From: Escherichia phage vB_EcoM_SYGD1
Direction: 5' to 3' (one strand)
Sequence record: MW883059
Length of the DNA stretch: 64,000 nt
A program made the position numbers and the translations under genes. The notes below the pieces were generated by a model. That model was not told the origin of the DNA. It made no database searches and worked only from the letters and a program-made list of their open reading frames with translations. Shown here piece by piece: positions 1-22,601 of this stretch (within the stretch, counting starts at the first letter, position 1; each line of letters begins with the position of its first letter).

Positions 1-1035
1 ATTCCGGTTTTATTGGCAAAAGAATACGATAAAACACTTAAGCTGGTAAATGATTGTGATATTCTAGTTATCAATTCAGTTCCTGCTACTTCAGTTGAAG
101 AAGACACTATTAATAACTATAAAAAAATTATTGATAACATTAAACCTTCGGTTCGTGTTGTAGTTTATCAGCATGACCATTCTTCTCTTTCTTTGCGTCG
201 AAATTTGGGATTAGAAGAAACTGTTCGTCGAGCTGATGTTATTTTTAGCCATTCTGATAATGGTGATTTTAATAAAGTTTTAATGAAAGAATGGTATCCG
301 GAAACAGTTTCTCTGTTTGATGATATTGAAGAAGCACCGACTGTATATAACTTTCAGCCTCCCATGGATATTGCGAAGGTTCGATCAACCTACTGGAAAG
401 ATGTTTCTGAAATTAACATGAATATCAACCGTTGGATTGGTCGTACTACTACATGGAAAGGCTTTTATCAGATGTTTGATTTTCACGAAAAACATCTTAA
501 ACCTGCAGGACTAAGTACTATTATGGAAGGTCTGGAACGTTCTCCAGCGTTCATTCCTATTAAAGAAAAAGGAATTCCATACGAGTATTATCGTCTTCAT
601 CAAGTAGACCAAATTAAAATTGCTCCTAATTTGCCGACGCAAATTCTTGACCGTTATGTAAATAGCGAAATGCTTGAACGCATGAGTAAATCCGGATTTG
701 GTTATCAGCTGAGTAAATTAGATAAAAAATATCTACAACGTTCTTTAGAATATACTCATCTCGAGCTTGGTGCATGTGGAACAATTCCAGTATTTTGGAA
801 ATCTACTGGTGAAAATTTAAAATTCCGTGTTGATAATACTCCGTTAATTTCACATGATAGCGGTATCGTTTGGTTTGATGAAAATGACATGGAATCAACA
901 TTTGAACGTATTAAAGAACTGTCATCTGACCGAGCTCTTTATGACCGTGAACGTGAAAAAGCTTATGAATTTTTGTATCAGCATCAAGATTCAAGCTTCT
1001 GCTTTAAAGAACAGTTTGACATTATTACAAAATAA
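1..1035 (+). CDS. agt: DNA alpha-glucosyltransferase, 5'-truncated at window edge
   Basis: Frame-1 translation from nt 1 (IPVLLAKEYDKTLKLVNDCDIL...DSSFCFKEQFDIITK) matches my recollection of T4 alpha-gt almost residue for residue; the true start lies upstream of the window, the track start at 13 is an internal TTG. Confidence 0.9.
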   Translation: MPVLLAKEYDKTLKLVNDCDILVINSVPATSVEEDTINNYKKIIDNIKPSVRVVVYQHDHSSLSLRRNLGLEETVRRADVIFSHSDNGDFNKVLMKEWYPETVSLFDDIEEAPTVYNFQPPMDIAKVRSTYWKDVSEINMNINRWIGRTTTWKGFYQMFDFHEKHLKPAGLSTIMEGLERSPAFIPIKEKGIPYEYYRLHQVDQIKIAPNLPTQILDRYVNSEMLERMSKSGFGYQLSKLDKKYLQRSLEYTHLELGACGTIPVFWKSTGENLKFRVDNTPLISHDSGIVWFDENDMESTFERIKELSSDRALYDREREKAYEFLYQHQDSSFCFKEQFDIITK

Positions 1036-2491: not shown

Positions 2492-2678
2492 CATTAACGA
2501 TGAATTCATAGCAAATATTGATTACGCCGAAGAAGATTCTAGATATGTTGGAATAATTTATATCACATCAAAAGCAGCACAAGGTGTTGTTTGCATGGCT
2601 GAATTTGATGAATACTTTTTAGATTATGATGATATGATAGAATGGTCTAAAAGATACATTAAAAGGAATCTTTTGTGA
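2415..2678 (+). CDS. hypothetical small protein (start uncertain, overlaps previous ORF in another frame)
   Basis: ORF only; could also be the second half of a frameshifted gene. Confidence 0.3.
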   Translation: MTHLNHYKIWLYLVLRMHTVKFSTFDINDEFIANIDYAEEDSRYVGIIYITSKAAQGVVCMAEFDEYFLDYDDMIEWSKRYIKRNLL

Positions 2679-3529
2679 AGAATTTTAAACTTGATATTAA
2701 TAATGAATTTTTAATAAAAGAATTAGTTGAAAAATTAGCGTTGAGTGAAGAAGACGCCAAGTTTTACATTAATTTTATTTCTATGAATTCAACTGTTAAA
2801 ACTCTAGGTAAAACGGAAGCACATCACGTGCTTCCTAAATCAATATTTCCTGAATATTTAAAATCTACATGGAATTTAGTTAATTTAAGTCATTTTAATC
2901 ATTTCAAAGCACATTTCTTATTAGCAAAAGGTAAAAATGGAAAAATGCTAAATGCTTTAAATAGAATGATGTCAGGAAAAACATATAAAAATTTATCTTT
3001 AGCCGAAGTTGATTTAATAGCTGCTGAATATAGTTTTATAAAACAAGATGTAAGTGACATAATATCAAAAAGGCTTCAACAGTATTATTCAAATCCGCAA
3101 AATAGAAATGCTGCTAGAGAAAGGGCATTAAAATATTTTTCAGTAGCAAAAAATAGAAAAGATAACAAAGAAAGATTAAATAATTTTAAAACAAAACAAA
3201 AAATTTCAATGGCTTCAAGGGAATGGTTTAATAACGAAGAAAATAAAATTAAACACCAAAGGGCTGTTCGCGCTGCTTTATCAAAACCTGAATATAAAAT
3301 AGCTATATCAAATTCAGTAGCTGCTAGTTGGAAAAATCCGGAGATTAGAAAAGCTCATATAGCATCTCGACGAAAAGGCTATCATTGGGATAATAAAGAT
3401 AAATTGTATGAATTGTGGATATCATATAATCGTCCTAAACATGTGATGTTTAGGAAAATGCTAGTTAAGAATGGATATCCAATAGAGGCTTCATTACAGG
3501 CTTTAGTTAAAGAATTTTCTTCATTGTGA
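2675..3529 (+). CDS. HNH-family homing endonuclease-like protein (Mob-like) inserted between genes 47 and 46
   Basis: 284 aa, basic and Lys/Asn-rich; EAHHVLPKS ... NLVNLSHFNHFKAH resembles the HNH core (HH ... N ... H); GTG start overlaps the upstream stop. Confidence 0.55.
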   Translation: MKNFKLDINNEFLIKELVEKLALSEEDAKFYINFISMNSTVKTLGKTEAHHVLPKSIFPEYLKSTWNLVNLSHFNHFKAHFLLAKGKNGKMLNALNRMMSGKTYKNLSLAEVDLIAAEYSFIKQDVSDIISKRLQQYYSNPQNRNAARERALKYFSVAKNRKDNKERLNNFKTKQKISMASREWFNNEENKIKHQRAVRAALSKPEYKIAISNSVAASWKNPEIRKAHIASRRKGYHWDNKDKLYELWISYNRPKHVMFRKMLVKNGYPIEASLQALVKEFSSL

Positions 3530-3544
3530 ACAATTGGATACAGA

Positions 3545-5233
3545 ATGAAATCATTTAAACTTAATAGAGTAAAATATAAAAATATAATGTCAGTTGGTCA
3601 AAATGGAGTTGACATTCAACTAGATAAGGTTCAAAAAACTCTTATTACTGGACGAAATGGCGGTGGTAAGTCTACTATGTTAGAAGCCATCACATTTGGG
3701 CTTTTCGGCAAGCCATTCCGTGATGTAAAGAAAGGTCAATTAATAAACAGCACAAATAAGAAAGAACTTTTAGTTGAACTGTGGATGGAATATGATGAGA
3801 AAAAGTACTATATCAAAAGAGGACAAAAACCAAACGTTTTCGAAATCACCGTTAACGGTACACGTCTTAATGAATCTGCCAGCAGTAAAGATTTCCAAGC
3901 AGAATTTGAACAGCTTATCGGAATGTCATATGCCAGTTTCAAGCAGATTGTTGTCCTTGGTACAGCAGGGTATACCCCTTTCATGGGTTTGTCGACCCCT
4001 GCGCGAAGAAAGCTTGTGGAAGACCTGCTTGAGGTAGGAACATTAGCTGAAATGGATAAGCTTAATAAAGCACTAATACGTGAATTAAATTCACAAAACC
4101 AAGTACTTGATGTTAAAAAAGATAGTATTATCCAACAAATTAAAATATATAATGATAACGTTGAACGCCAGAAAAAATTAACTGGTGATAACCTTACTCG
4201 TCTGCAGAATATGTATGACGATTTGGCAAAGGAAGCTAGAACGCTAAAATCGGAAATAGAAGAAGCTAATGAAAGATTAGTTAATATTGTTTTGGATGAA
4301 GACCCGACTGATGCATTTAATAAAATCGGTCAAGAAGCAGTTTTAATTAAATCAAAAATTGACTCGTATAATAAAGTCATTAATATGTATCACGAAGGTG
4401 GATTATGTCCAACCTGTTTGTCACAATTAAGTTCCGGTGATAAAGTTGTTTCTAAAATTAAAGATAAAGTTTCTGAATGCACGCATTCGTTTGAACAGCT
4501 TTCAACACATCGTGATAATTTAAAAGTTCTTGTTGATGAATACCGAGATAATATTAAAACCCAGCAGACGTTGGCAAATGATATTCGCAATAAAAAGCAA
4601 TCTCTAATCACGACGGTAGATAAAGCTAAAAAAGTTAAAGCAGCTATAGAAAAAGCATCATCTGAGTTTATTGACCATGCTGATGAAATAGCACTGCTTC
4701 AAGAAGAACTTGATAAAATTGTTAAGACAAAAACTAATTTAGTAATGGAAAAATACCACAGAGGAATTTTGACTGATATGCTCAAAGATTCTGGTATTAA
4801 AGGTGCTATTATTAAAAAGTACATTCCATTATTTAATAAGCAGATTAACCATTATCTTAAAATAATGGAAGCGGATTATGTGTTTACATTAGATGAAGAA
4901 TTTAATGAGACAATTAAATCCCGTGGTCGTGAAGATTTTAGTTATGCTTCATTTAGTCAAGGTGAAAAAGCACGAATTGATATTGCTCTTTTATTTACTT
5001 GGCGTGATATTGCTGAAAAAGTTTCAGGTGTTAAAATAAGTTGTTTATTTCTTGATGAAGTGTATGACGGTGCATTTGATGCTGAAGGTATTAAAAATGT
5101 GGCTAAAATTTTAGATGGTTTGAAGGATACCAACTTCTTCATAATTTCGCATAAAGACCATGACCCACAGGAATATGGTCAGCACATTCAAATGGAAAAA
5201 GTTGGTAGATTTAGTTTAGCTAAGATTAGCTAG
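3545..5233 (+). CDS. 46: gp46 recombination endonuclease ATPase subunit (Rad50/SbcC-like)
   Basis: 562 aa; Walker A GRNGGGKST near the N-terminus, long coiled-coil middle with CPTC zinc hook, Walker B/D-loop LFLDEVYDGAFD near the C-terminus. Confidence 0.9.
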   Translation: MKSFKLNRVKYKNIMSVGQNGVDIQLDKVQKTLITGRNGGGKSTMLEAITFGLFGKPFRDVKKGQLINSTNKKELLVELWMEYDEKKYYIKRGQKPNVFEITVNGTRLNESASSKDFQAEFEQLIGMSYASFKQIVVLGTAGYTPFMGLSTPARRKLVEDLLEVGTLAEMDKLNKALIRELNSQNQVLDVKKDSIIQQIKIYNDNVERQKKLTGDNLTRLQNMYDDLAKEARTLKSEIEEANERLVNIVLDEDPTDAFNKIGQEAVLIKSKIDSYNKVINMYHEGGLCPTCLSQLSSGDKVVSKIKDKVSECTHSFEQLSTHRDNLKVLVDEYRDNIKTQQTLANDIRNKKQSLITTVDKAKKVKAAIEKASSEFIDHADEIALLQEELDKIVKTKTNLVMEKYHRGILTDMLKDSGIKGAIIKKYIPLFNKQINHYLKIMEADYVFTLDEEFNETIKSRGREDFSYASFSQGEKARIDIALLFTWRDIAEKVSGVKISCLFLDEVYDGAFDAEGIKNVAKILDGLKDTNFFIISHKDHDPQEYGQHIQMEKVGRFSLAKIS

Positions 5234-5942
5234 GTTTATATTTACAATTATCATTATGCCATCTTGATAAATTTCCGAAAGTGGTAACTTTACCACAATG
5301 GACGCAAGTACCAGTCTTTTCAGTTTTCTTGCGTCCATTTGGATTTTTCTTGCAGAAATTTCTATGCGCTGCGATAACGCATTTCTTGCCTATCATTCCG
5401 CAGAATTCGCAGGATGTTTCTTCAAGAACGATTGCTTTAAGCCCGTTTGAGATATTATTTCTGTGTTCTTTAGACATTGGCGGTCTAACTTTAGGATTGG
5501 GGTGATTTGGGCAGTTATCAAAATGCCATCGATTCATATTCCCGCTTAATCCAGACTTACCGCAATGTGGACAAGTTAGTCTTGCTTTATTAGCTACTGC
5601 ATCGGACATTTTCTTTCGTGTCTCTTGGGAGAACTCTTTATTCTTTTCTATTTCCCAGAGTTTACGACGAATCCAGCCGAAAGTTTTATTGTTACGTTTA
5701 GCGTATTTCGTAGAAACTGTCATCATGTTAGCAGCATAGACTAATTTTGGTTCAGAAGGATAAATTTTTACTAAAAGTTGATGAGCTACATAGTGCTCTT
5801 CTGGTGTTAAATCTACTAAGTTTGAAGCATCATCGCTGCCATTTAAACAGCGTGGTATAATGTGATGAGATTCAGTATAGCAATCAAGTTTTCGAGATTT
5901 AGCATTAGAGATTAACTTTTCATAAATTAGTTTATAATTCAT
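5226..5942 (-). CDS. HNH homing endonuclease with three C-terminal zinc-finger repeats, antisense to flanking early genes
   Basis: 238 aa; N-terminal HNH core YTESHHIIPRCLNGSDDASNLVDLTPEEHYVAH; three repeats of CxxCG...(R/N)WHxDNC; 3' end overlaps the gene 46 stop by 8 nt on the opposite strand. Confidence 0.75.
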   Translation of the reverse strand: MNYKLIYEKLISNAKSRKLDCYTESHHIIPRCLNGSDDASNLVDLTPEEHYVAHQLLVKIYPSEPKLVYAANMMTVSTKYAKRNNKTFGWIRRKLWEIEKNKEFSQETRKKMSDAVANKARLTCPHCGKSGLSGNMNRWHFDNCPNHPNPKVRPPMSKEHRNNISNGLKAIVLEETSCEFCGMIGKKCVIAAHRNFCKKNPNGRKKTEKTGTCVHCGKVTTFGNLSRWHNDNCKYKPS

Positions 5943-12150: not shown

Positions 12151-12531
12151 ATGAAAATCGCTATTTTGGTTATTGCATTGGGTCTTACTGGTTGTGTAGC
12201 TCAAGGACCGGTAGTAAATCAATCTGATGTAGGAAAAATTGTAAACTGTTCAAGCAAATTTTATAATCCTAATGTTAAGTGTTATAAAGAAGCTCCAAAA
12301 CAGACAGTAGAACAAATGCAGGCGAATTTTGACGAAGCTATTCGCCCAGATGAATCTGCTCAAGCATATCGTAATTCGGATATAATTACACGCGAAGAAA
12401 AAATTGAAAACTACTGTGCTGAACTTTGGGCAAATTGGGCTAATAATTACCAATGGCGTACTGGTAAAAATGCTCCGATGGAGTATGTAGTGAATTCTTA
12501 TAATTCATGCGTAAAAAATTTGACTAAGTGA
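12151..12531 (+). CDS. putative lipoprotein (signal peptide with lipobox LTG-C)
   Basis: MKIAILVIALGLTGC is a typical lipoprotein signal and lipobox; own promoter and RBS. The track ORF 11962..12531 is an in-frame read-through of the promoter and leader, not the real N-terminus. Confidence 0.55.
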   Translation: MKIAILVIALGLTGCVAQGPVVNQSDVGKIVNCSSKFYNPNVKCYKEAPKQTVEQMQANFDEAIRPDESAQAYRNSDIITREEKIENYCAELWANWANNYQWRTGKNAPMEYVVNSYNSCVKNLTK

Positions 12532-12538
12532 GGAAAAG

Positions 12539-12790
12539 ATGGAAACTTTAGTAGCAGGTTCAATTTTTATGGTTTTAGTTTCAGGCGTGTTGGCTATTAT
12601 TATATACATGCTTCCATGGTTCATCGCCTTGATGCGTGGGTCAAAATCGACAGTAGGAATCTTTTTCACATCTTTACTGTTTAACTGGTCAATTATTGGT
12701 TGGTTTATTACCTTTATTTGGTCAATTGCAGGTGAAACTAAAAAATCTGCACAGCAAAATCAAGTAATTATCATCAGAGAGAAGGAATGA
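12539..12790 (+). CDS. imm: Imm superinfection immunity membrane protein
   Basis: 83 aa with two hydrophobic helices; size and position between 43 and 42 match T4 Imm. Confidence 0.75.
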   Translation: METLVAGSIFMVLVSGVLAIIIYMLPWFIALMRGSKSTVGIFFTSLLFNWSIIGWFITFIWSIAGETKKSAQQNQVIIIREKE

Positions 12791-12943
12791 AAAGCAAAAT
12801 TTTAACAGTATTGCTTTTAATCTTGATGATTATAATAAGTATATACTATAGCGTAACGGTTCCTTGTATGATTCCGACACTTATTATAGGTTGGGGTTTA
12901 TTACTGTTACAAGTTAAATATGAATGTATCAATTGAGGTTTAA

Positions 12944-13684
12944 ATGATTAGTGACTCTATGACAGTTGAAGAAATCCGTCTTCATTTGGGGCTTGCATTA
13001 AAGGAAAAAGATTTCGTAGTTGATAAAACTGGCGTTAAAACTATTGAAATTATTGGCGCATCATTTGTAGCAGATGAACCGTTTATTTTTGGCGCTCTTA
13101 ATGATGAATACATTCAGCGTGAACTTGAATGGTATAAATCTAAAAGTTTGTTTGTTAAAGATATTCCGGGTGAAACACCAAAGATTTGGCAACAGGTAGC
13201 ATCTTCTAAAGGCGAAATTAACTCGAATTATGGTTGGGCTATCTGGTCAGAAGATAACTATGCCCAGTATGATATGTGTTTAGCTGAGCTTGGTCAAAAT
13301 CCTGATTCTCGACGTGGTATCATGATTTATACTCGTCCATCCATGCAATTTGACTACAATAAAGATGGCATGTCAGATTTCATGTGTACGAATACAGTAC
13401 AGTACCTGATTCGTGATAAGAAAGTCAATGCAGTAGTTAACATGAGAAGTAATGATTGTTGGGCAGGCTATCGTAATGATTATGCATGGCAAAAATACGT
13501 ATTAGATAAATTAGTATCTGATTTGAATACAGGCGACCCGTCGCGGCAATATAAAGCAGGTTCTATTATATGGAATGTTGGAAGTCTTCATGTGTACGAA
13601 AATCAATTTTATTTAGTTGACCATTGGTGGAACACCGGTGAAACTCACATTGCTAAAAAGGATTATACCGGAAAATGGAAGTAA
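12944..13684 (+). CDS. 42: gp42 dCMP hydroxymethylase
   Basis: 246 aa, thymidylate-synthase-like fold; same length and position as T4 gp42. Confidence 0.9.
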   Translation: MISDSMTVEEIRLHLGLALKEKDFVVDKTGVKTIEIIGASFVADEPFIFGALNDEYIQRELEWYKSKSLFVKDIPGETPKIWQQVASSKGEINSNYGWAIWSEDNYAQYDMCLAELGQNPDSRRGIMIYTRPSMQFDYNKDGMSDFMCTNTVQYLIRDKKVNAVVNMRSNDCWAGYRNDYAWQKYVLDKLVSDLNTGDPSRQYKAGSIIWNVGSLHVYENQFYLVDHWWNTGETHIAKKDYTGKWK

Positions 13685-14316
13685 ATGTTCCACATGTTTA
13701 TAAGTATAAACATCCTAAAACTAAAAAGTGGTATATAGGAAGTCATGATGGTCACAACCCGAATTATGATGGTTCGGGTGTAGTTTGGCAGCATGCTAAA
13801 AAGAAATATGGAATAAAATCCTTTAATAAAGAAATATTATATGAAGGACCGATGTTTAGACAAGTTGAAGAAATTATTTTAACTTGTTTAGATGCTGCTA
13901 ATTGCCCGGATTCATATAATTTAAAGAATGAAGCGTGGGGAGGAAGTTTTCCAGGTAAATTAAATGGAATGTACGGTAAGAAACTATCTCCAGAAGAAAG
14001 ATATAAATGTGGAAATGCCTTTCGTGGAATCAAGCGTCCTGATCATTCTAAAAGAATGAAAGGCGAAGGTAATCCAATGTATGGTAAAAATGAGCAGGCA
14101 TATGGAATTATAAATCGAGCAAAGGAAAATTCTGGTAAAACTTATGAAGAAATTTTTGGCGCAGAAAAAGCTAAAATAATTAAAGAAACGATGTCTAAAA
14201 ATCGTAAAGGAAAACCTCATAATTTGATAGAAAAAATATGTCCGCATTGCGGACTAAAAGGACGTGGGCCAAATATGACAAGATACCATTTTGACAAATG
14301 TAAGGCACTTAAATGA
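13675..14316 (+). CDS. GIY-YIG homing endonuclease (Seg-like) with C-terminal zinc finger
   Basis: N-terminal GIY-YIG motifs VYKYKH ... KKWYIGSH; C-terminal CPHCGLKGRGPNMTRYHFDKC; start overlaps the gene 42 stop. Confidence 0.7.
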   Translation: MEVNVPHVYKYKHPKTKKWYIGSHDGHNPNYDGSGVVWQHAKKKYGIKSFNKEILYEGPMFRQVEEIILTCLDAANCPDSYNLKNEAWGGSFPGKLNGMYGKKLSPEERYKCGNAFRGIKRPDHSKRMKGEGNPMYGKNEQAYGIINRAKENSGKTYEEIFGAEKAKIIKETMSKNRKGKPHNLIEKICPHCGLKGRGPNMTRYHFDKCKALK

Positions 14317-15155
14317 TTCAATTCGTAATTCCAAGCTATCAACGCGTAGGGGCAGTTTCTGCCCTTGATATGTTTCCATCTGATTATGAACCACATATTG
14401 TAGTACGTGAACACGAAGAAAAAGCTTATTATGATGCTTATGGGTCTAGAGCTAAAATTATAACTATTCCTGATGATGTCAATGGAATTGCTGGTACTCG
14501 TAAAGCGATTACTGATATGTATGCAGGTCAACGAATTTGGATGATCGATGATGATACTACTATTCGTATGAGTTCAATGCGAAAGAAAGATGATCGTCGC
14601 TGTGTAGATAAAATTAATCAGTTAACCCGTGAACAGTTCTATGAATTGATTCAATACGTTGAAGATGCTATGGATTGCGGGTATTATCATGGTCATGCTC
14701 GTCTACCTATTTTTAAAATTACTTCATCTTGGGGTAATTATCGTGAAAATTCATATGGATTCACGAATACATGGTATGACCTCGGGAAACTTACAACAGA
14801 ACAAATTGGGTATGGAAAAATTGATTTATGCGAAGATATGTATGCATTTCTCAATTTAATTAATCAAGGTTATCCGCATTTGGCTTTGTTCAAATATCTG
14901 GTTGTGTCTGGAAAAGCACAAGCTCCTGGCGGATGTAGTTCAATTCGTAGTAATTCAAAACATAATAGAGCTCTTGAGCAAATCAATAGAGAGTTTCCAG
15001 AGCAAGCTCGTTGGAAAACATCGAATATTGAAAAGAGAAAATCGTTGGGTGAAGAAGACGAGCCATTAAAGGTTCTTCGTATGTGTGTTTCACGTAAAGA
15101 AAAGTCAGAAGCATTTCATAAGTTTAATGCTATTCATCCAATAGCAGTTGATTAA
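14313..15155 (+). CDS. putative DNA-modifying glycosyltransferase (GT-A-like, DxD motif), not T4-type beta-gt
   Basis: 280 aa with WMIDDDTTI; occupies the T4 beta-gt position between 42 and uvsX but does not resemble T4 beta-gt (351 aa) as I recall it. Confidence 0.5.
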   Translation: MIQFVIPSYQRVGAVSALDMFPSDYEPHIVVREHEEKAYYDAYGSRAKIITIPDDVNGIAGTRKAITDMYAGQRIWMIDDDTTIRMSSMRKKDDRRCVDKINQLTREQFYELIQYVEDAMDCGYYHGHARLPIFKITSSWGNYRENSYGFTNTWYDLGKLTTEQIGYGKIDLCEDMYAFLNLINQGYPHLALFKYLVVSGKAQAPGGCSSIRSNSKHNRALEQINREFPEQARWKTSNIEKRKSLGEEDEPLKVLRMCVSRKEKSEAFHKFNAIHPIAVD

Positions 15156-15173
15156 TGCCTAAATTTATTGTGT

Positions 15174-15179
15174 TATAAT
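15174..15179 (+). promoter_or_regulatory. extended -10 promoter element (TGT-TATAAT) upstream of uvsX
   Basis: TGTTATAAT read directly; no clear GTTTAC -35 at standard spacing. Confidence 0.35.
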
Positions 15180-15232
15180 TACCCTATCTTTAACCAGTGA
15201 GGAAAATATAATGATGCCTATGGAAAAAATGA

Positions 15233-16162
15233 ATGTCTATTGCAGATTTAAAATCCCGTTTGATTAAAGCTTCCACTTCTAAAATGACTGCTGAACTGAC
15301 TACATCTAAATTCTTTAATGAAAAGGATGTAATCCGTACAAAAATCCCAATGCTTAATATCGCTATTTCCGGTGCGATTGATGGCGGTATGCAGTCTGGT
15401 TTAACTATTTTTGCAGGTCCTTCTAAACACTTTAAATCAAATATGTCTTTGACTATGGTTGCGGCGTATTTGAACAAATATCCTGACGCGGTTTGTCTAT
15501 TTTATGATAGCGAATTTGGTATTACTCCAGCTTATTTGCGGTCCATGGGAGTTGACCCTGAACGAGTAATTCATACGCCAATTCAGTCAGTTGAACAACT
15601 GAAAATTGATATGGTGAATCAGCTTGAAGCTATCGAGCGCGGTGAAAAAGTTATTGTATTCATCGACTCAATCGGTAATATGGCTTCTAAGAAAGAAACG
15701 GAAGATGCCTTGAATGAAAAATCTGTGGCAGATATGACTCGTGCTAAATCACTGAAGTCATTATTCCGTATTGTTACTCCTTATTTTAGTATTAAAAACA
15801 TTCCATGTGTTGCGGTTAACCATACAATTGAAACAATTGAAATGTTTAGTAAAACCGTGATGACAGGTGGTTGTGTTATTGCTGGTACTAAAATCCAGAT
15901 GTCCGATGGTTCTACTAAAGCAGTTGAAGATATTCGTCCAGGTGAGCGTGTTAAAACCATGGTCGGTGATAATGAAGTAACTTATGTTTGGGACCCCGAA
16001 ACTCTGGCTGAAGGTACTCCTGAATGTTTCGAAATTGAATTCGAAGACGGTTATAAAGTAACTACTTCAGATACTCACAAGTTCCTGGTAATGGTTAAAG
16101 ACATTCCAACTTGGGTTGAAGCTAAAGATTTAGTAGCTGGAATGGATTGTGTTGTAAGGTAA
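15233..16162 (+). CDS. uvsX: UvsX recombinase N-terminal fragment (residues 1-213) fused to an intein N-half (96 aa), then stop
   Basis: The first 213 aa are near-identical to T4 UvsX as I recall it (Walker A GPSKHFKS). From Cys214 (nt 15872) the sequence CVIAGTKIQ...TSDTHKFLV...MDCVVR has intein block A/B character and ends at tandem TAA TAA stops. Confidence 0.85.
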   Translation: MSIADLKSRLIKASTSKMTAELTTSKFFNEKDVIRTKIPMLNIAISGAIDGGMQSGLTIFAGPSKHFKSNMSLTMVAAYLNKYPDAVCLFYDSEFGITPAYLRSMGVDPERVIHTPIQSVEQLKIDMVNQLEAIERGEKVIVFIDSIGNMASKKETEDALNEKSVADMTRAKSLKSLFRIVTPYFSIKNIPCVAVNHTIETIEMFSKTVMTGGCVIAGTKIQMSDGSTKAVEDIRPGERVKTMVGDNEVTYVWDPETLAEGTPECFEIEFEDGYKVTTSDTHKFLVMVKDIPTWVEAKDLVAGMDCVVR

Positions 16163-16165
16163 TAA

Positions 16166-16207
16166 ATATGGGTACCGGACTAATGTATATTTTTGAGGTA
16201 CCCATAT
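16166..16207 (+). promoter_or_regulatory. perfect 11-bp hairpin (ATATGGGTACC / GGTACCCATAT) sequestering the RBS and start codon of the endonuclease gene
   Basis: The 3' arm (16197-16207) covers the last GG of the GAGG Shine-Dalgarno and the AT of the ATG at 16206; 20-nt loop; AATAAATA (16161-16168) immediately 5' resembles a late promoter. Confidence 0.55.
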
Positions 16208-16928
16208 GAATTTTGTCTATAAAATTGTGTTCAACGATAGAATTAAAAACGGCACTCCGCCATATTACTACATAGGGAGCAAGACAAATGCTTCTTATGT
16301 AGATGGTAAGATTATTGACGCCCACGGTCGTGAGTACTATGGCTCATCGAGATATCCCGGATATCATGATTTTATCAATAATGTTACTGTTGAAATATTG
16401 GAGCAATATGATGATATTAAACACACTAAACTGCTAGAGCGCGAAAATTTCTATCAGAAACAAGTAAATGTTAAAACAAATCCAGATTATTTTAATTTAG
16501 ATTATGCTTGTGGGCATAATTCATATGCTAATGCTGATTTTGCATCATACAAGCATTATATAACAGGTAAATGTATTCGTCTTGAAAGAAACCATCCGCT
16601 TGTTAAATCTGGTGTGTATGTTGGCGTCACAAAAGGCGTGAAATCTTCTGATGAACACCGTAAGCACATATCAGAAGGTATTACCGGAGAAAACAATGGG
16701 TTCTATGGTAAGAAACACACTAAAGAAACAATTAATAAAATATCAGAAAAAGCAAAGAAAAGATTAAAGCATTCCCATCCTAGACAAAAAGGTGTTATCA
16801 TAAACGGTATTGAATACCGGGGCGTCAGACCTGCTGCAAGAGCGTTGGGAATTAATCCTAACACAATTATCAACAAAATTAAAGCTAATATAAAAGGATG
16901 GGCTTATGCAGTAGATGCACGCGGTTAA
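16206..16928 (+). CDS. free-standing GIY-YIG homing endonuclease (Seg-like) located between the two uvsX fragments
   Basis: 240 aa; GIY-YIG motifs FVYKIVF ... PPYYYIGSK; own RBS; different reading frame from the upstream uvsX fragment; paralogous to the ORF at 60053..60685. Confidence 0.75.
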   Translation: MNFVYKIVFNDRIKNGTPPYYYIGSKTNASYVDGKIIDAHGREYYGSSRYPGYHDFINNVTVEILEQYDDIKHTKLLERENFYQKQVNVKTNPDYFNLDYACGHNSYANADFASYKHYITGKCIRLERNHPLVKSGVYVGVTKGVKSSDEHRKHISEGITGENNGFYGKKHTKETINKISEKAKKRLKHSHPRQKGVIINGIEYRGVRPAARALGINPNTIINKIKANIKGWAYAVDARG

Positions 16929-17036
16929 GGCATTCGAAGATATGGTAAAAGAATTTGGAATGAACATGACAATCAAGATTATGCTTTCATGAAATATGTA
17001 TATTGAAACTAGCTACTACGAAACACAAGGTAAAGT

Positions 17037-17684
17037 ATGAAAATTAAATCTGTTAAATCTGTTGGTAAAAAAGAAGTCTATGATTTGTCTGTTGCTGACG
17101 TCGAGCATTATGTTTTAGAAAATGGTATCGTTACACACAACACAGGCGTAATGTATTCGGCTGATACTGTGTTCATTATCGGTAAGCGTCAGATTAAAGA
17201 TGGTTCTGATCTTCAAGGGTATCAATTTGTTCTAAATGTAGAAAAATCTCGTACCGTTAAAGAAAAAAGTAAATTCTTTATTGATGTTAAATTTGACGGT
17301 GGTATCGATCCTTATTCTGGATTGTTAGATATGGCTCTAGAATTAGGATTTGTAGTAAAACCTAAAAATGGCTGGTATGCTCGTGAATTTCTTGACGAAG
17401 AAACCGGCGAGATGATTCGCGAAGAAAAATCTTGGCGTGCAAAAGATACCAATTGCACTACATTCTGGGGTCCTTTATTTAAGCATCAACCATTCCGAGA
17501 TGCTATTAAACGTGCTTATCAGTTAGGTGCTATTGATAGTAATGAAATTGTTGAAGCTGAAGTTGATGAATTGATTAACTCAAAGGTTGAAAAATTTAAA
17601 TCTCCAGAAAGTAAAAACAAATCAGCAGCTGATTTAGAAACTGACCTAGATCAGTTAAGTGATATGGAAGAATTTAATGAATAA
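17037..17684 (+). CDS. uvsX: intein C-half (35 aa) fused to the UvsX recombinase C-terminal fragment (180 aa)
   Basis: After ...IVTHN the sequence TGVMYSADTVFIIGKRQIKDG...SDMEEFNE matches the T4 UvsX C-terminal half as I recall it; RBS AAGG precedes the ATG at 17037. Confidence 0.85.
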   Translation: MKIKSVKSVGKKEVYDLSVADVEHYVLENGIVTHNTGVMYSADTVFIIGKRQIKDGSDLQGYQFVLNVEKSRTVKEKSKFFIDVKFDGGIDPYSGLLDMALELGFVVKPKNGWYAREFLDEETGEMIREEKSWRAKDTNCTTFWGPLFKHQPFRDAIKRAYQLGAIDSNEIVEAEVDELINSKVEKFKSPESKNKSAADLETDLDQLSDMEEFNE

Positions 17685-22085: not shown

Positions 22086-22601
22086 ATGCCACATTTCAAC
22101 GAATGTAGTCATCTGATCGAAGGCGCTGATAAAGCTCAAAATGAATACTGGGATATTCTCGGTGATGAAAAAGACCCGCTGCAGGTTATGCTTGATATGC
22201 AGAAATCTTTGCAGGTTCGTTTAGCAAATGACCGCGAATACTGCTATCATCCAGATAAATTAGAAACTGCCGGTGATGTTGTTTCTTGGATGCGTGAACA
22301 AAAAGACTGTATTGATGATGAATTCCGCGAACTTCTGACTTCTCTTGGTGAAATGTCACGTGGTGAAAAAGATGCATCGGCAGTTTGGAAAAAATGGAAA
22401 GCACGTTATATTGAAGCGCAAGAAAAACGCATTGATGAAATGTCCCCAGAAGATCAGCTCGAAATTAAATTTGAGCTTGTGGATATATTTCATTTCGTAT
22501 TAAATATGTTTGCTGGCCTTGGAATGAATGCGGAAGAAATTTTTAAACTTTATTATTTGAAAAATAAACATAATTTTGAACGTCAAGATAATGGGTATTA
22601 A
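22086..22601 (+). CDS. 56: gp56 dCTPase/dUTPase (MazG-like)
   Basis: 171 aa as in T4 gp56; conserved acidic helical motifs. Confidence 0.8.
   Translation: MPHFNECSHLIEGADKAQNEYWDILGDEKDPLQVMLDMQKSLQVRLANDREYCYHPDKLETAGDVVSWMREQKDCIDDEFRELLTSLGEMSRGEKDASAVWKKWKARYIEAQEKRIDEMSPEDQLEIKFELVDIFHFVLNMFAGLGMNAEEIFKLYYLKNKHNFERQDNGY

Follow-up and report, generated by a model that had tools for sequence, protein, structure and literature searches.

Which glycosyltransferase does Escherichia phage vB_EcoM_SYGD1 (record MW883059) carry at the position held by the beta-glucosyltransferase gene (beta-gt) in phage T4, and which sugars would its DNA consequently bear on 5-hydroxymethylcytosine (hmC)? The window, i.e., the whole stretch of 64,000 nucleotides that was analysed, had been described in a sequence-only reading as containing at this place a 280-residue ORF with a DDD motif, situated between gene 42 and uvsX. 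The locus was found to be organised as follows.

12944..13684, + strand: gene 42, dCMP hydroxymethylase, which supplies hmC (Pfam Thymidylat_synt; 94% identity to T4 gp42).
13675..14316, + strand: Seg-like free-standing homing endonuclease of 213 aa, GIY-YIG/NUMOD3 (phrog_314, T4 SegA).
14313..15155, + strand: ba-gt (ggt, TAGT), assigned here as a beta-glucosyl-HMC-alpha-glucosyltransferase of 280 aa, ATG to TAA, with a predicted GT-A fold.
From 15233, + strand: uvsX, downstream of ba-gt (Pfam and comparison with T4 UvsX).

The ORF does lie between gene 42 and uvsX, and the DDD was read on the + strand at residues 79-81. The gene does not directly adjoin gene 42, however, as the Seg-like ORF intervenes. 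A chance reading frame was ruled out, because the ORF was present at 90% or higher nucleotide identity in 474 phage records (megablast) and its product matched the phrog_842 family, "beta-glucosyl-HMC-alpha-glucosyltransferase," with E = 1e-88 over residues 1-275 (PHROGs). The 474 records are from Tequatroviruses of Escherichia, Shigella, Yersinia, and Salmonella, many of them with the gene annotated as a beta-glucosyl-HMC-alpha-glucosyltransferase.

Over its 280 residues, the protein was 98.2% identical to the enzyme of T2 (AP018813), 97.5% to that of T6 and 98.9% to that of the Durham Tequatroviruses Solly and TB37. It scored 38.8 bits with PF20691, the Pfam model for TET-associated glycosyltransferases (TAGT), and so exceeded the gathering score of 27.5, protein residues 3-207 aligning with positions 2-205 of the 205-position model; a model for the protein was not found in NCBIfam. 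The earlier guess that this could be the glucosyltransferase known from T2 and T6 was thus borne out by both the T2/T6 and the profile comparisons. Like the T2/T6 enzyme of phrog_842, the gene product is 280 aa long, is encoded in the gene 42-uvsX locus, has an alpha-glucosyltransferase (alpha-gt) as partner and retains all family-conserved residues. We conclude, with a probability of about 0.92, that the ORF at 14313..15155 is the gene of the "secondary" DNA glucosyltransferase known from T2 and T6 (ba-gt, ggt, or TAGT), at the T4 beta-gt position. The enzymatic role is assigned from literature on the T2/T6 enzyme, whereas identity, family, fold, residues and context were computed here.

A location between gene 42 and uvsX, the place of beta-gt, is also what a diverged or functional replacement of T4 beta-gt with beta-monoglucosyl-hmC as product would show. 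The sequence, however, is unlike T4 beta-gt: BLASTP of the 351-aa T4 protein against the ORF gave no match (best E = 3.3), as had been claimed before any search was run. PF09198, the Pfam domain of beta-gt, was not found in the ORF, and a T4 beta-gt homologue was not found within the 64-kb window by tblastn. The fold predicted for the protein is GT-A and that of beta-gt is GT-B (PMC13216743), and beta-glucosyl-hmC is absent from phages carrying the TAGT gene (PMC13390438). The replacement reading is already refuted by the BLASTP, Pfam and structural results, the last being to GT-A and not GT-B enzymes, and we regard its probability as negligible. What the two enzymes share is genomic position and the formation of a beta-glycosidic bond on phage DNA. 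UDP-glucose is the donor of both. T4 beta-gt acts directly on the hydroxymethyl group of hmC, whereas the T2/T6-type enzyme extends an existing alpha-glucose.

The GT-A assignment, which had been proposed from the DDD motif, agreed with the structure prediction. An AlphaFold2 model built with 11 homologues had a mean pLDDT of 77.9 and a pTM of 0.79, with low confidence in the loop at residues 133-149. Its predicted strand 74-78 runs into the DDD, as in GT-A enzymes, and structural matches of the model point to a GT-A, GT2-like, Rossmann-like fold with the DxD placed after the fourth beta-strand. A PDB sequence search with the single protein returned nothing meaningful, and a solved structure of the TAGT family was not found. 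The family profile gave a marginal N-terminal match in the PDB to the GT2 enzyme AvpGT (E = 0.058), in which IPSYxR aligned with IPTYNR and the DDD with LDDDD. Identity to inverting GT2-type GT-A enzymes (TarP, TarS, RmlT, WrtF, AvpGT, and K4CP) was 8-16%; these enzymes have teichoic acids or glycans, and not DNA, as acceptors.

Conservation was computed on an alignment of 152 diverse family members. Fourteen to fifteen positions were at least 88% conserved (I6, P7, R11, R63, D79, D80, D81, D175, L180, G186, G206, G207, C208, R212, and P229), and all of them are intact in the window protein. The motifs map as follows.

14343..14345, + strand: codon CGC of R11 in the N-terminal IPSYxR motif; Arg in 151/151 members, His in phage T2.
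14547..14555, + strand: DDD (D79-D80-D81), the DxD metal and nucleotide-sugar motif; D79 in 99%, D80 in 100%, and D81 in 96% of 152 members.
14832..14837, + strand: E174-D175, the "ED" motif, with D175 as putative catalytic base; D175 in 100% of 152 members, role by GT2 analogy.
14928..14948, + strand: G206-G207-C208-S-S-I-R212, the C-terminal family motif; G206 in 99%, G207 in 100%, C208 in 88%, and R212 in 97%.

By analogy with GT2 enzymes, the DDD at residues 79-81 would bind a divalent metal and the diphosphate of UDP, R11 of IPSYxR and R63 may contribute to nucleotide binding, and D175 in the ED motif probably serves as catalytic base. The protein is presumably a metal-dependent, inverting GT-A transferase, metal dependence being suggested by the DxD motif and inversion by the fact that UDP-alpha-glucose gives a beta-glucoside (gentiobiose).

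The breadth of the TAGT family bears on how far the substrate can be read from membership. A word-indexed homologue search returned just 12 proteins, and an exhaustive profile search was needed to reveal the family, with 2266 cluster representatives (clustering at 50% identity) at E <= 0.001; PF20691 matched 50 of 50 sampled homologues. IPSYxR, DDD, ED, and GGCSxxR are common to the family and the window protein, but most members are just 20-35% identical to it, with substrate unknown, and many occur with TET/JBP oxygenases or alone and are not paired with an alpha-gt. [quoted passage not shown] Against this stand the 97-99% identity to enzymes from phages of measured DNA composition (T2, T6, Solly, TB37, Geo, and EL) and the fact that the only three private substitutions relative to Solly and TB37 (T23S, R92K, and V101I, all conservative) sit at family-variable positions. 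A different substrate is therefore very improbable, and the T2/T6-type assignment is retained.

The T2/T6 enzyme adds a second, beta-linked glucose to alpha-glucosyl-hmC, giving gentiobiosyl-hmC (PMC13216743, PMC13160076). When ba-gt was deleted from T6, the DNA contained alpha-glucosyl-hmC alone, gentiobiosyl-hmC was lost and sensitivity to Brig1 increased (PMC11078745). The remaining components of such a pathway were detected in the window.

1..1035, + strand: alpha-gt, C-terminal 344 aa (the gene runs past the left window edge), which would make the alpha-glucosyl-hmC acceptor.
22086..22598, + strand: gene 56, dCTPase of the hmC pathway, by which unmodified C is excluded (tblastn with T4 gp56, 94.7% over 171 aa).

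With gp42 and gp56, the DNA would be built with 5-hydroxymethylcytosine. Most hmC residues would next receive an alpha-linked glucose through alpha-gt, and this glucose would be the acceptor onto which TAGT would transfer a second glucose from UDP-glucose in a beta-1,6 linkage to form gentiobiosyl-hmC. ba-gt would probably be expressed along with the early/middle replication genes. A scan for sigma-70 promoters and terminators over 12500..15400 gave 15 sites, compared with 12.8 expected from shuffles; there being no excess, no promoter is claimed.

The alpha-gt expected at the window start was present, cut by the window edge, but it was 91% identical to that of T4 and not nearly identical as had been stated. 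It belongs instead to the allele of T2 and Solly (98.5% identity to T2, 99.1% to Solly and Some, and about 99% to TB37). Alpha-gt was found to occur as two alleles that share about 91% identity, one in T4, T6, Geo, and EL and the other in T2, Solly, TB37, Some, and the window. The allele does not track the reported gentiobiosyl-hmC fraction among the phages compared.

Both transferases were compared with those of phages whose DNA sugars are known, using compositions from PMC13390438 and PMC13160076 and taking the TAGT of Solly and TB37 as the reference (consensus) sequence.

Solly and TB37: T2-type alpha-gt; reference TAGT; about 1/3 hmC, about 2/3 gentiobiosyl-hmC and a trace of alpha-glucosyl-hmC, with about the same hmC and gentiobiosyl-hmC shares in relatives of the two phages (PMC13390438).
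Some: T2-type alpha-gt (the comparison covered alpha-gt only); DNA composition as in Solly and TB37 (PMC13390438).
T2: T2-type alpha-gt; TAGT with R11H and P251S; about 25% bare hmC, 70% alpha-glucosyl and 5% gentiobiosyl (PMC13160076, PMC13390438).
Geo and EL: T4-type alpha-gt; TAGT with I50V, M89I, R95K, C97R, V101I, A202S, and Q203H; hmC, alpha-glucosyl and gentiobiosyl at about 1:2:2.
T6: T4-type alpha-gt; TAGT with Y40N, D55G, and R106H, the two records each showing a further apparent lesion; about 25% bare hmC, 3% alpha-glucosyl and 72% gentiobiosyl.
Window: T2-type alpha-gt; TAGT with T23S, R92K, and V101I; predicted to be as in Solly and TB37.

In Tequatroviruses with alpha-gt and TAGT, alpha-gentiobiosyl-hmC was detected by LC-MS and beta-glucosyl-hmC was absent (PMC13390438). 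As the locus lacks a beta-gt and the two transferases share 99% identity with their Solly and TB37 counterparts, the DNA of vB_EcoM_SYGD1, unless a beta-gt or another transferase is encoded outside the 64-kb window, is predicted to carry about 1/3 bare hmC and about 2/3 gentiobiosyl-hmC, with little alpha-monoglucosyl-hmC and no beta-monoglucosyl-hmC, a pattern like that of T6 and not like those of T4 or T2. Solly and TB37 offer the best guide available to the DNA pattern (TAGT 98.9%, alpha-gt 99%), although in these phages gene 42 overlaps the TAGT gene directly and uvsX is uninterrupted. The prediction is an extrapolation from the nearest TAGT, from which the window protein differs at three freely varying positions. 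Identity alone does not set the quantitative pattern, because gentiobiosyl-hmC content ranges widely among phages whose enzymes are 97-99% identical (about 5% in T2, 40% in Geo and EL, 66% in Solly and TB37, and 72% in T6).

T2 illustrates a further alternative for SYGD1, namely that TAGT is present but weak, so that the DNA would contain mostly alpha-monoglucosyl-hmC and a few percent gentiobiosyl-hmC. The window alpha-gt is the T2-type allele (98.5% identity), its TAGT is 98.2% identical to that of T2, and T2 DNA classically contains about 70% alpha-glucosyl-hmC and 5% gentiobiosyl-hmC (PMC13160076, PMC13390438). Yet the same alpha-gt allele (99%) is found in Solly, TB37, and Some, whose DNA is about 2/3 gentiobiosyl-hmC (PMC13390438). 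The T2 TAGT departs from that of Solly and TB37 solely by R11H and P251S, and the window protein keeps R11 and P251 as in Solly and TB37; the T6 substitutions Y40N, D55G, and R106H are also absent from it. R11, moreover, is invariant among the family members in which it was compared. A weak enzyme of the T2 kind is accordingly unlikely in SYGD1, and the Solly-like pattern remains the prediction.

R11H and P251S were present in all three translated T2 records, AP018813, MH751506, and LC348380 (loci L004:4283-5125, L014:1286-2128, and L015:1295-2137, respectively). A 55-nt probe centred on T2 codon 11 matched eight records (T2 and SV76), and the equivalent probe from the window matched 186. Since T2 shares its alpha-gt allele with Solly and TB37 and its TAGT differs from theirs solely at R11 and P251, R11H is a plausible cause of the low gentiobiosyl-hmC content of T2. 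A literature search on the phage T2 gentiobiosyl glucosyltransferase returned no match. Taken as one proposal, that an intact TAGT close to the consensus, together with a T2-type alpha-gt, would give SYGD1 heavy, T6-like gentiobiosylation and that the T2 TAGT may be an R11H hypomorph (about 5% vs. about 66% gentiobiosyl-hmC) is tentative, and we put it at slightly less than an even chance.

The two T6 records each contained an apparent lesion in ba-gt, different in the two. In MH550421 (L003:4138-4980), codon 10 reads TAG and the annotated gene begins at Met20, a start that would eliminate the conserved IPSYxR strand. In AP018814 (L005:2135-2974), one Asp of the DDD has been lost in frame (WMIDDTT). 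The differences arose either by mutation in the stocks or through errors in sequencing, and in both cases they matter to those who use MH550421 or AP018814 as the T6 reference. An N-terminal lesion considered for phage ELT1, whose annotated gene has 261 aa, was rejected; the translation is intact and the shorter product reflects a choice of annotation only. A 9-bp stem-loop (TAGGGGCAG TTT CTGCCCTTG) at 14347..14367 (+) lies within codons 12-19 of ba-gt, just 5' of the in-frame Met20. It is also kept in T2 and T6 and was flagged by the terminator scan though it lies within coding sequence.

The neighbourhood of ba-gt differs from that in T2 and T6 by the Seg-like homing endonuclease gene between gene 42 and the transferase gene: the order in the window is 42, Seg-like ORF, ba-gt, and uvsX, and that in T2 and T6 is 42, ggt, and uvsX. 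The Seg-like product matched the phrog_314 homing endonuclease (E = 1.8e-31) and T4 SegA (32% identity, E = 5e-9), and its TGA stop codon overlaps the ATG of ba-gt in the sequence ATGA. The insert is missing from T2, T6, Geo, EL, Solly, and TB37, in which gene 42 directly overlaps ba-gt. On the other side of ba-gt, uvsX is fractured into three ORFs over 15233..17684 (+) by a split intein and an endonuclease gene.

15233..16162, + strand: UvsX N-part (aa 1-212) and a 97-aa intein N-fragment starting with Cys (CVIAGTK...).
16206..16928, + strand: free-standing homing endonuclease ORF of the NUMOD3/GIY-YIG type.
17037..17684, + strand: 35-aa intein C-fragment (...IVTHN, ending in HN), followed by Thr and the UvsX C-part.

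The intein junction maps exactly to G211|T212 of T4 UvsX, and in the PDB the fused intein halves matched the split inteins Npu DnaE and gp41-1. The insertion is common to only about eight phage records, including ELT1, HY03, RPN226, BYEP01, SP21535, and pSe_SNUABM_01; a paper describing it was not found in a literature search for a split intein in Tequatrovirus. Four homing-endonuclease-like ORFs are present in the first 17 kb, the two Seg-like ones at 13675..14316 (+) and 16206..16928 (+), which matched phrog_314 and phrog_7504, and two HNH-like ones.

2675..3529, + strand: HNH-like homing endonuclease ORF (phrog_655).
5226..5942, - strand: HNH-like homing endonuclease ORF on the opposite strand, between gene 46 and rpbA (phrog_655).

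Mobile endonucleases thus have a hot spot in the replication-gene block, and they may promote the exchange of glucosyltransferase alleles.

Much of what was found at this locus was known from other phages. The TAGT gene, its predicted GT-A fold and its assignment to PF20691 have been published (PMC13216743), as has its synteny with T4 beta-gt (PMC13390438). The pairing of alpha-gt with TAGT has been described as usual among T-even-like phages, where it forms the majority, the alpha and beta pair of T4 being a rarity (PMC13216743, PMC13390438, PMC11078745). The identity, locus and prevalence of ba-gt are therefore already known, and T4 is the unusual phage, not vB_EcoM_SYGD1.

The sugar pattern of hmC determines which host defences can act on a T-even phage. 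Brig1, an alpha-glucosyl-hmC glycosylase, does not excise gentiobiosyl-hmC (PMC11078745), and BapA does not deglucosylate it (PMC13160076); it remains a target of GmrSD-type enzymes (PMC13216743). A primary system consisting of alpha-gt only leaves about 25-33% bare hmC, which is exposed to hmC-directed enzymes. Because the sugar pattern sets the exposure to defence, correct annotation of ba-gt aids the prediction of host range and defence sensitivity.
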